Below, in pieces: positions 14,114 through 14,212 of a stretch of DNA of 44,771 bases. The position numbers were made by a program, and so were the translations under genes. The notes under the pieces were generated by a model. It was given only the letters and a program-made list of their open reading frames with translations, was not told the DNA's origin and did no database searches. Where the stretch lies: the UHGV virus genome UHGV-0180729. One strand, written 5' to 3'. Each line of letters starts with the position of its first letter. The first letter of the stretch is position 1. Origin of the DNA: a virus.

Positions 14114-14142
14114 TTGACACTTAAGACTAATCCGACGATACT
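14114..14142 (+). promoter_or_regulatory. Candidate promoter (TTGACA-N17-GATACT) for a short non-coding transcript
   Basis: TTGACA at 14114-14119; downstream -10-like GATACT; no ORF before terminator 14183-14212. Confidence 0.3.
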
Positions 14143-14148
14143 TAAATC

Positions 14149-14212
14149 ACCTCCTGTTCCATCCCTCTGCTCTCCAGTTTTATCCCGGCCCTGACCCAGC
14201 CGGGATTTTTTT
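14149..14212 (+). ncRNA. Candidate small RNA (about 65 nt, CU-rich, ends at an intrinsic terminator)
   Basis: Region between promoter-like element and terminator reads AATCACCTCCTGTTCCATCCCTCTGCTCTCCAG...; contains CACCUCCU, complementary to a Shine-Dalgarno. Confidence 0.25.
14183..14212 (+). terminator. Rho-independent terminator
   Basis: Stem TCCCGGC/GCCGGGA followed by seven T. Confidence 0.7.

Follow-up and report, generated by a model that had tools for sequence, protein, structure and literature searches.

A candidate small RNA gene between two terminators downstream of the endolysin gene in a Kagunavirus-like phage and its relatives in the Guernseyvirinae

Anatomy of the locus

The virus genome UHGV-0180729 was analysed over its whole length of 44,771 nucleotides (nt), a stretch referred to below as the window. 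It represents a Kagunavirus-like siphophage of the Guernseyvirinae, an E. coli phage. Downstream of its endolysin gene lies a terminator (terminator A), followed by a promoter (P1), a pyrimidine-rich stretch and a second terminator (terminator B), and then by a further promoter (P2) with its leader and an array of small genes. An initial annotation, made from the sequence of the window alone, had proposed that positions 14114 to 14212 encode a small non-coding RNA. Comparison with related phages strongly supports a dedicated non-coding unit running from P1 to terminator B, and a transcript of about 63 nt probably exists. The features of this unit are as follows.

14114-14142, + strand: promoter P1, with the -35 hexamer TTGACA (14114-14119), a 17-nt spacer (N17) and the -10 hexamer GATACT (14137-14142)
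14146-14155, + strand: the 10-mer ATCACCTCCT (in RNA AUCACCUCCU), identical to the 3′ end of 16S ribosomal RNA (rRNA), that is, to the anti-Shine-Dalgarno (anti-SD) sequence
14149-14181, + strand: unstructured, pyrimidine-rich 5′ region of the predicted RNA, from folding and composition
14182-14212, + strand: rho-independent terminator B, with a hairpin (14182-14206), a T-tract (14206-14212) and the loop CCUGACCCA

The promoter-like element TTGACA-N17-GATACT that had been proposed at 14114-14142 was borne out. P1 matches the sigma-70 consensus at 10 of 12 positions, a score reached by only 11 sites on the two strands of the window; four of these are on the + strand, P1 and P2 among them. Its -10 hexamer is identical to that of the T7 A1 promoter, and transcription, by analogy with A1, should start at A14149 or C14150, for an RNA of about 62-64 nt. 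An alignment of 49 distinct sequences of the element (A3) contained no variation in the -10 hexamer and a single variant of the -35 hexamer (TTGACG); variable positions made up 15 of the 17 spacer columns and all seven columns directly after the -10 hexamer. In the Kaguna clade nucleotide diversity was 0.000 for both hexamers and 0.082 for the spacer; in the Jersey clade it was 0.021 for the -35 hexamer, 0.000 for the -10 hexamer and 0.151 for the spacer. Moreover, one locus (L021) keeps TTGACA-N17-CATACT around a wholly unlike spacer, which is the signature expected of selection on promoter function.

Retention of P1 was tested with collection scans that were anchored on other features, either P2 or the hairpin. 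P1 was present in all of the 32 distinct loci found through P2, and the P1 pattern was present in 58 of the 62 loci flagged as family-like through the hairpin. Three of the four negative loci can be explained by a variant -10 hexamer (L021), by the end of the locus cutting through the site (L158) and by an unrelated chance match (L113), leaving L160 as the sole true loss of P1. Judged from these comparisons, the P1 hexamers are under clear purifying selection. L160, which comes from IMG/VR, carries a P2-like TAGTTGACTA in place of P1, joined 12 nt before CACCTCCTG and without a -10 box. This locus may be a natural P1-loss variant.

In terminator B, AUCCCGGC (14182-14189) pairs with GCCGGGAU (14199-14206) to form a stem of 8 base pairs (bp), including 6 G-C, around a 9-nt loop, and T7 follows. 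The initial annotation had described a very strong terminator with a 7-bp GC stem and seven T, about 70 nt past the promoter; both stem and T-run are present, with the stem corrected as above, and the distance applies to the end of the T-tract (70 nt after the -10 hexamer), whereas the hairpin already starts 40 nt after it. A consensus terminator scan skipped this terminator owing to its loop limit of 8 nt, and a separate scan recovered it among about a dozen strong terminators in the window. Across the 49 sequences, 91.5% of the cells in the hairpin are paired. One pair changes from C-G to U-A between the clades, the Jersey clade gains A-U pairs, and a T-tract of 7-14 nt is found in every copy. 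The loop CUGACCC is common to Kaguna- and Jersey-type phages and is replaced by CUAACCC, CGUGAC or UCUCCAG in remoter relatives. A role for the loop as a recognition site was rejected because of these changes, and its conservation probably reflects ancestry.

The predicted fold of the RNA has an energy of -13.8 kcal/mol and leaves the 33 nt 5′ of the hairpin unpaired. That the intervening sequence is pyrimidine-rich was confirmed: positions 14149-14183, of which the final A-U opens the hairpin, contain 14 C, 14 U, 3 G and 4 A, such that 28 of 35 nt are C or U. By pyrimidine content the 40-nt body ranks in the top 0.24% of the window, and by the density of CTCC, CCTC and CTCT in the top 0.06%. 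Three anti-SD-like motifs lie within it (ACCUCCUG at 14149-14156, CAUCCCUCU at 14160-14168 and CUCUCC at 14170-14175). The 5′ region ends in GUUUU (14177-14181), which is completed to GUUUUAU by the first two bases of the hairpin (14182-14183). Folding had been suggested as a check on the RNA, and all 36 distinct variants fold alike: the first 31-33 nt stay open (mean pairing probability 0.05-0.23), and a single terminator hairpin and a U tail follow. No further structure was predicted by RNAalifold.

The statement in the initial annotation that there is no open reading frame (ORF) here is literally untrue, as a 26-codon ORF with a TTG start inside the -35 box spans 14114-14194 in the window, but it holds in the sense that no ORF is conserved. 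Automatic annotation also calls ORFs of 38-39 codons across the element in relatives (AG11_59A, Bas70_0074 and, in phage Ivi, ECPH5_11), which would make the element a small protein gene. All of these ORFs start inside P1, either at the TTG of the -35 hexamer or at a spacer ATG that is unique to AG11, and they are not preceded by a Shine-Dalgarno (SD) sequence. The frame is shifted by indels of 1-2 nt and by the polymorphism of the T-tract, and the peptides are unrelated between the two clades. Since indels of 1-3 nt in the body, together with slippage of the T-tract, exclude a conserved reading frame, the protein-coding reading was rejected, and we attach almost no probability to it.

Conservation within the Guernseyvirinae

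A 211-nt query reaching from P1 to the first ATG matched 445 phage records, with at least 80% of the query covered in 382 of them. E. coli phages (Kagunavirus) showed ~95% identity to the query, Salmonella phages (Jerseyvirus) ~75%. The left edge of the conserved block lies exactly at the -35 box of P1, and it does so in three different upstream contexts. In Bas70 and Jersey-type phages the stop codon of the endolysin gene abuts the -35 box and terminator A is absent; in K1G terminator A abuts P1; in the window and in Ivi terminator A plus ~125 nt precede P1. On the right, the P2 leader is nearly invariant among ~50 loci and is succeeded by at least 10 different first genes, and the start codon of the first gene is, on this comparison, a mosaic boundary that forms the right edge of the conserved module. 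With both edges this sharp, P1, the RNA, terminator B, P2 and the leader act as one module.

When the consensus bodies of the two clades, Kaguna and Jersey, were aligned optimally as a pair, 27 identities were obtained over 29 aligned positions, with 10 gap columns. Among 1000 shuffled bodies the identities averaged 21.6 +/- 1.4 and reached 27 at most, and the third codon positions of the endolysin genes are 48% identical between the same two phages. By this measure the body is conserved between the clades beyond an effect of composition, and the cores CUCCUG, CAUCCCUCU and CUCC are common to both. Within the Jersey clade the diversity of the body is 0.031 vs 0.151 for the P1 spacer, i.e. five times lower. 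Within the Kaguna clade the two are equally variable (0.073 vs 0.082), and several of the substitutions in the Kaguna body exchange one pyrimidine for another.

These figures bear directly on the main rival explanation, in which terminator B insulates the P2 operon, P1 is kept for a reason at the level of the DNA, and the RNA is made as a functionless by-product. P1 might then serve, for example, as one of several strong entry sites for RNA polymerase in the early module, or as part of a recombination-linked mobile 'promoter cassette'. The edges of the module, at the -35 box and at the start codon of the first gene, are cassette-like, and the Kaguna body varies as much as spacers that look neutral; the fivefold deficit of diversity in the Jersey body points the other way, as do the extreme pyrimidine content and the cores CAUCCCUCU and CUCCUG, kept between clades that differ so widely at the third positions of the endolysin gene. 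Terminator B is the sole terminator after the endolysin gene in Bas70 and Jersey-type phages, as an insulator might be. However, the retention of P1 and terminator B (~95% identity) in phages that also carry terminator A implies that terminator B does not act solely for the lysis genes. Target scans (see below) found no specific partner for the RNA, which fits an inert by-product, yet it is hard to see what would be gained at the level of the DNA from a promoter whose transcription meets a terminator 40 nt further on, and the hexamers of this promoter are nonetheless selected. On balance we regard the insulator explanation as unlikely, though it is a serious one.

To cover more distant relatives, a covariance model (R1) was built from 27 Kaguna- and Jersey-type sequences. 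The model found one copy per genome. Homologues were detected in Cornellvirus (SP-031, TS6, PhiSTP2, Shemara and others; 19-30 bits, E 1e-5 to 5e-3), and in Enterobacter phage phiEap-2 the model matched the 3′ half of the element. The predicted Cornell-type RNA is shorter (~48 nt), consisting of AUAUUCCACCCAGCCAGCUUUG, a hairpin and 8-11 U. Upstream of it is a weaker promoter-like sequence, TGGACG-N16-TATACT, which overlaps the end of the endolysin gene; it resembles a promoter-like site found at the same position in the window, at 13892-13920. Kaguna-, Jersey- and Cornell-type copies and phiEap-2 all have UU directly before the hairpin and a long U tail behind it. What extends across the subfamily is a single strand rich in C and poor in G, with UU just before the hairpin, then the hairpin itself, a long U tail and an early promoter behind it; the anti-SD flavour, going by the sequences compared, is specific to the Kaguna and Jersey clades.

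C-richness with little G is the one property kept in Cornellvirus and phiEap-2 without anti-SD-like motifs, and C-richness is kept in phiEap-2 and PSP2-22 although P1 is unrecognisable in them. Together with the position of the element, directly past the endolysin stop codon in most relatives, this could indicate a compound terminator, in which the C-rich stretch is a Rho-loading (rut-like) backup at the end of the lysis operon and P1 is secondary. Only ~33 nt are single-stranded, however, which is short for a rut site, and an efficient intrinsic terminator directly adjoins. Such a role would also leave the selection on P1 unexplained, and the window and K1G retain both P1 and the body behind the separate terminator A. 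We therefore give the compound terminator little credence.

A host origin of the element, or an extended antisense target in the host, was rejected, as BLAST against 5,426 E. coli genomes returned zero matches. Pattern scans of genome and metagenome collections returned chance matches only, besides phage contigs in one unrelated assembly. In that assembly, of Taishania pollutisoli CZZ-1 (Bacteroidota), three scaffolds (L070, L071 and L076) match the pattern. On L070, the one scaffold inspected, the match is an entire P1-RNA-P2 element of the Jersey type, and the assembly probably includes Salmonella-phage DNA.

Possible function of the transcript

Our preferred reading, to which we assign a probability of roughly 45%, is that the unit encodes an Hfq-type, trans-acting small RNA (sRNA) whose 5′ region, being rich in pyrimidines, would cover purine-rich translation-initiation regions at an early stage of infection. 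Host sigma-70 RNA polymerase would start at the strong, T7-A1-like P1 and stop at terminator B, giving a primary transcript from 14149/14150 to 14212, about 62-66 nt in length. This would comprise ~33 nt of C/U-rich single strand and a U-rich stretch, followed by a GC-rich hairpin with at least 7 U as its tail. An Hfq-binding module consists of a U-rich stretch, a terminator hairpin and a poly-U tail of ~7 or longer. That layout is present here (GUUUUAU, the hairpin and U7-14), the UU before the hairpin does not vary among four clades, and the 3′ part of the RNA is a candidate for a module of this enterobacterial type. Early in infection, CUCCUG, CAUCCCUCU and CUCC would then pair with ribosome-binding regions rich in purines, on mRNAs of the host or of the phage, and the pairing would lower the translation or the stability of the targeted mRNA. 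The present analysis shows the anatomy of the unit, its conservation across the subfamily, the selection on hexamers and hairpin, and the absence of coding potential; we infer that the transcript accumulates, binds Hfq and pairs with ribosome-binding sites.

The initial annotation had noted a complementarity to SD sequences. This stands in part. The 10-mer ATCACCTCCT corresponds to the last-but-two 10 nt of E. coli 16S rRNA (rrsH of MG1655; 1802-1811 of L057, in which rrsH ends at 1813), is found once in the window, at the predicted 5′ end of the RNA or close to it. The motif CACCTCCT at 14148-14155 is indeed anti-SD-like and is kept in nearly all Kaguna-type copies. However, the exact CACCUCCU motif, inside the stretch that is identical to 16S rRNA, is specific to Kagunavirus-type phages. 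GCUCCUG takes its place in Jersey-type phages and CACUCCUU in RP180-like phages, and the segment is absent in Cornellvirus.

Potential targets were sought with RNAduplex at 86 heuristic start sites of the window and at 65 annotated start sites of AG11. In the window the RNA pairs better with start regions than with gene interiors (-16.1 vs -12.7 kcal/mol), but this preference follows from composition alone, as dinucleotide shuffles of the RNA pair equally well. The shuffles reached a mean of -15.5 +/- 0.44 and a minimum of -29.3 +/- 2.4 at the start sites of the window, where the RNA itself reached -16.1 and -29.1. At the start sites of AG11 the RNA was likewise no better, with a mean of -15.0 vs -14.0 +/- 0.55 for the shuffles and a minimum of -27.9 vs -26.6 +/- 2.6. 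In a genome-wide scan the best non-self matches lay inside genes, with Watson-Crick runs of at most 11 nt, as expected by chance. A duplex with the P2 leader can be drawn (9 bp over GGAGUAGAG plus 4 bp over GAUG, -20.3 kcal/mol) and would be strengthened by a frequent G-to-A variant; the leader was nevertheless rejected as a partner, since natural variants on either side are uncompensated. Pairing with rRNA or transfer RNA (tRNA) was also rejected, the matches being short and due to chance.

The scans of start sites and of the genome, and the uncompensated variants in the P2 leader, weigh against an sRNA that acts at ribosome-binding sites. Four further points fall on the same side: the Kaguna body varies as much as the spacer, the Cornell-type RNA is C-rich without a CUCC-type motif, P1 is not recognisable in phiEap-2 or PSP2-22, and in the literature we found no transcript, Hfq-binding or target data for any Guernseyvirinae phage. 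The only RNA-seq paper on a Kagunavirus that was found gives gene-level counts only (vB_Eco_K1B4; PMC12645636). Taken together, the scans suggest that the RNA is generically complementary to ribosome-binding sites, and no specific phage target emerges. The target prediction against phage ribosome-binding sites that had been suggested at the outset thus did no better than dinucleotide shuffles and did not bear out the proposed modulation of translation through SD pairing.

An RNA that works without individual targets can also be envisaged. It would mimic the 3′ tail of 16S rRNA and act as a multivalent anti-SD decoy, being made abundantly from a T7-A1-class promoter on replicating DNA and biasing translation globally early in infection. 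The three CUCC/CCUC-type motifs would compete with ribosomes for strong SD sites; alternatively, the RNA would sequester a host factor that recognises C/U-rich sequence (Hfq, Rho or S1). We consider such a decoy improbable.

To our knowledge, very few regulatory RNAs are known from strictly virulent phages. The Guernseyvirinae are a large group with many Salmonella and E. coli phages for therapy and biocontrol, for which no regulatory RNA has been reported; our literature search found no description of an sRNA in this subfamily. The candidate is present in more than 440 sequenced genomes, and its promoter, 3′ end and length of ~63 nt are precisely predicted. It is also carried by phages of the BASEL collection (e.g. 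Bas70 and Bas76) that grow on E. coli K-12, which makes it readily testable. If the preferred reading is true and the sRNA acts at ribosome-binding sites, early host takeover would gain a further layer, one based on RNA. If the RNA is inert, the locus would be a clean case of a conserved promoter-terminator insulator, and its annotation as a 'hypothetical protein' should end.

Genomic setting and known systems

The elements on either side of the unit are listed below.

13409-13891: endolysin gene
13892-13920: promoter-like site TGGACG-N17-TAAAAT (9/12), directly past the endolysin stop codon
13954-13984, + strand: terminator A, past the endolysin gene; its stem covers 13954-13978 and its T-run ends at 13984
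14235-14263, + strand: promoter P2, TTGACT-N17-TATATT, with its predicted start at A14270
14264-14296, + strand: P2 leader CATCGACAACGAGAACGGAGTAGAG, 27 nt from the predicted start at A14270, with the SD sequence GGAG, followed by ATG at 14297
From the ATG at 14297, + strand: first small early gene, 49 codons

As in AG11, an HNH endonuclease ORF (12828-13412) separates the endolysin gene from the holin genes. Terminator A was found at about 13954-13984, where the initial annotation had placed an endolysin terminator. Between the promoter-like site at 13892-13920 and this terminator are ~35 nt of C-rich sequence, and 13892-13985 could be another short transcript. The same unit is found in K1G, in a longer version, and in Ivi. 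It is not a paralogue of the P1 unit, and a tandem duplication was rejected; model R1 scored it at 11.9 bits and matched the hairpin only. The ~125 nt between terminator A and P1 (13990-14112) contain no conserved ORF and no Rfam match. This stretch was seen only in Ivi, and two further loci (L015 and L033) share ~15 nt upstream of the -35 hexamer.

Downstream, the start context of P2 (CCATCGA) is identical to that of T7 A1. The co-oriented array behind P2 comprises small genes (14297-15902) and terS (15992), then terL, the portal gene and others. A terminator at 15915-15930 (GCCCTCTACGGAGGGC plus a T-run) and a promoter, TGTACA-N18-TATAAT (15936-15965), lie upstream of terS, so that the nine small genes that follow P2 are an operon with boundaries of its own. 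The large terminase (16543-17778) is ~40% identical to those of other Kagunavirus and Jerseyvirus phages and reaches at least 95% identity in 8 records only, e.g. AV104; on this evidence the packaging module appears to have been exchanged.

A promoter, a short terminated transcript and then a long co-oriented gene array recall the lambda PR'-6S RNA-tR' unit, which also has a strong constitutive sigma-70 promoter. By analogy, the unit could be a regulated leader or antitermination platform, at which polymerase from P1 would normally halt at terminator B until a phage or host factor drives read-through into the small-gene, packaging and structural genes. The further terminator and promoter before terS are in keeping with this. 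In contrast to the lambda unit, however, the unit is downstream of the lysis genes and lacks a pause element, in that the first 20 transcribed nt, ACCTCCTGTTCCATCCCTCT, contain no TANNNT-like or -10-like pause hexamer. P2, which is equally strong, follows just after the terminator and needs no antitermination. The 5′ region is unstructured in all variants, without an alternative antiterminator fold. Neither a Q-like nor an N-like antiterminator is annotated in AG11, and none was found among the ten downstream proteins scanned, which matched only PHROGs of unknown function and terminase; a counterpart of the lambda Q gene is accordingly missing from both sets. We judge an antitermination platform to be distinctly improbable.

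Other short phage RNAs offer a different comparison. The oop RNA of lambda and the sar RNA of P22 are cis-antisense RNAs of ~70 nt, each with its own promoter and intrinsic terminator. They overlap a gene on the opposite strand, whereas the phage RNA described here faces no conserved gene: the sole opposite-strand ORF (14019-14120, 33 codons) is of lineage-specific sequence and is absent from most relatives. The likeness to the 3′ terminus of 16S rRNA is confined to a 10-nt identity (AUCACCUCCU) in Kaguna-type phages only, and is one of three similar motifs.

At gathering thresholds Rfam gave no match in the window, which also lacks tRNA and tmRNA genes, and permissive scans gave only sub-threshold matches that were driven by terminators. 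The best of these was to RF02278, Betaproteobacteria toxic small RNA, and aligned UCUCC, a GCCCGG-type terminator hairpin and the U tail, skipping 23 model positions. Membership of this family was rejected, as the score of 23.4 bits is far below the gathering threshold of 50. RF02278 comprises terminated RNAs of 57-92 nt that are toxic when cloned in E. coli (PMC4603805). In RF02278, as in PsrR1 and anti-hemB, a CUCC motif lies next to the terminator, like in the phage RNA; RF02278 belongs to another host taxon, and the resemblance is one of kind and not of descent.

The closest parallels are with the Hfq-dependent sRNAs of enterobacteria, which are ~60-90 nt in length; the seed at their 5′ end is single-stranded, and a U-rich stretch leads into a GC-rich terminator hairpin that ends in a long U tail. 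The phage RNA has the same layout of seed, U-rich stretch, hairpin and U tail. It differs from them in being encoded by a virulent phage, in lacking homology to Rfam families, and in a seed that is unusually long, of low complexity and ~80% pyrimidine. On the sequence comparisons made here, it is a new RNA family of a known kind, hitherto undescribed for the Guernseyvirinae. DapZ and MicL are sRNAs embedded at the 3′ end of a gene with a promoter of their own, and the arrangement in most relatives is of this type, P1 lying within the 3′ end of the endolysin gene or right next to it and the RNA sharing the terminator of that operon.

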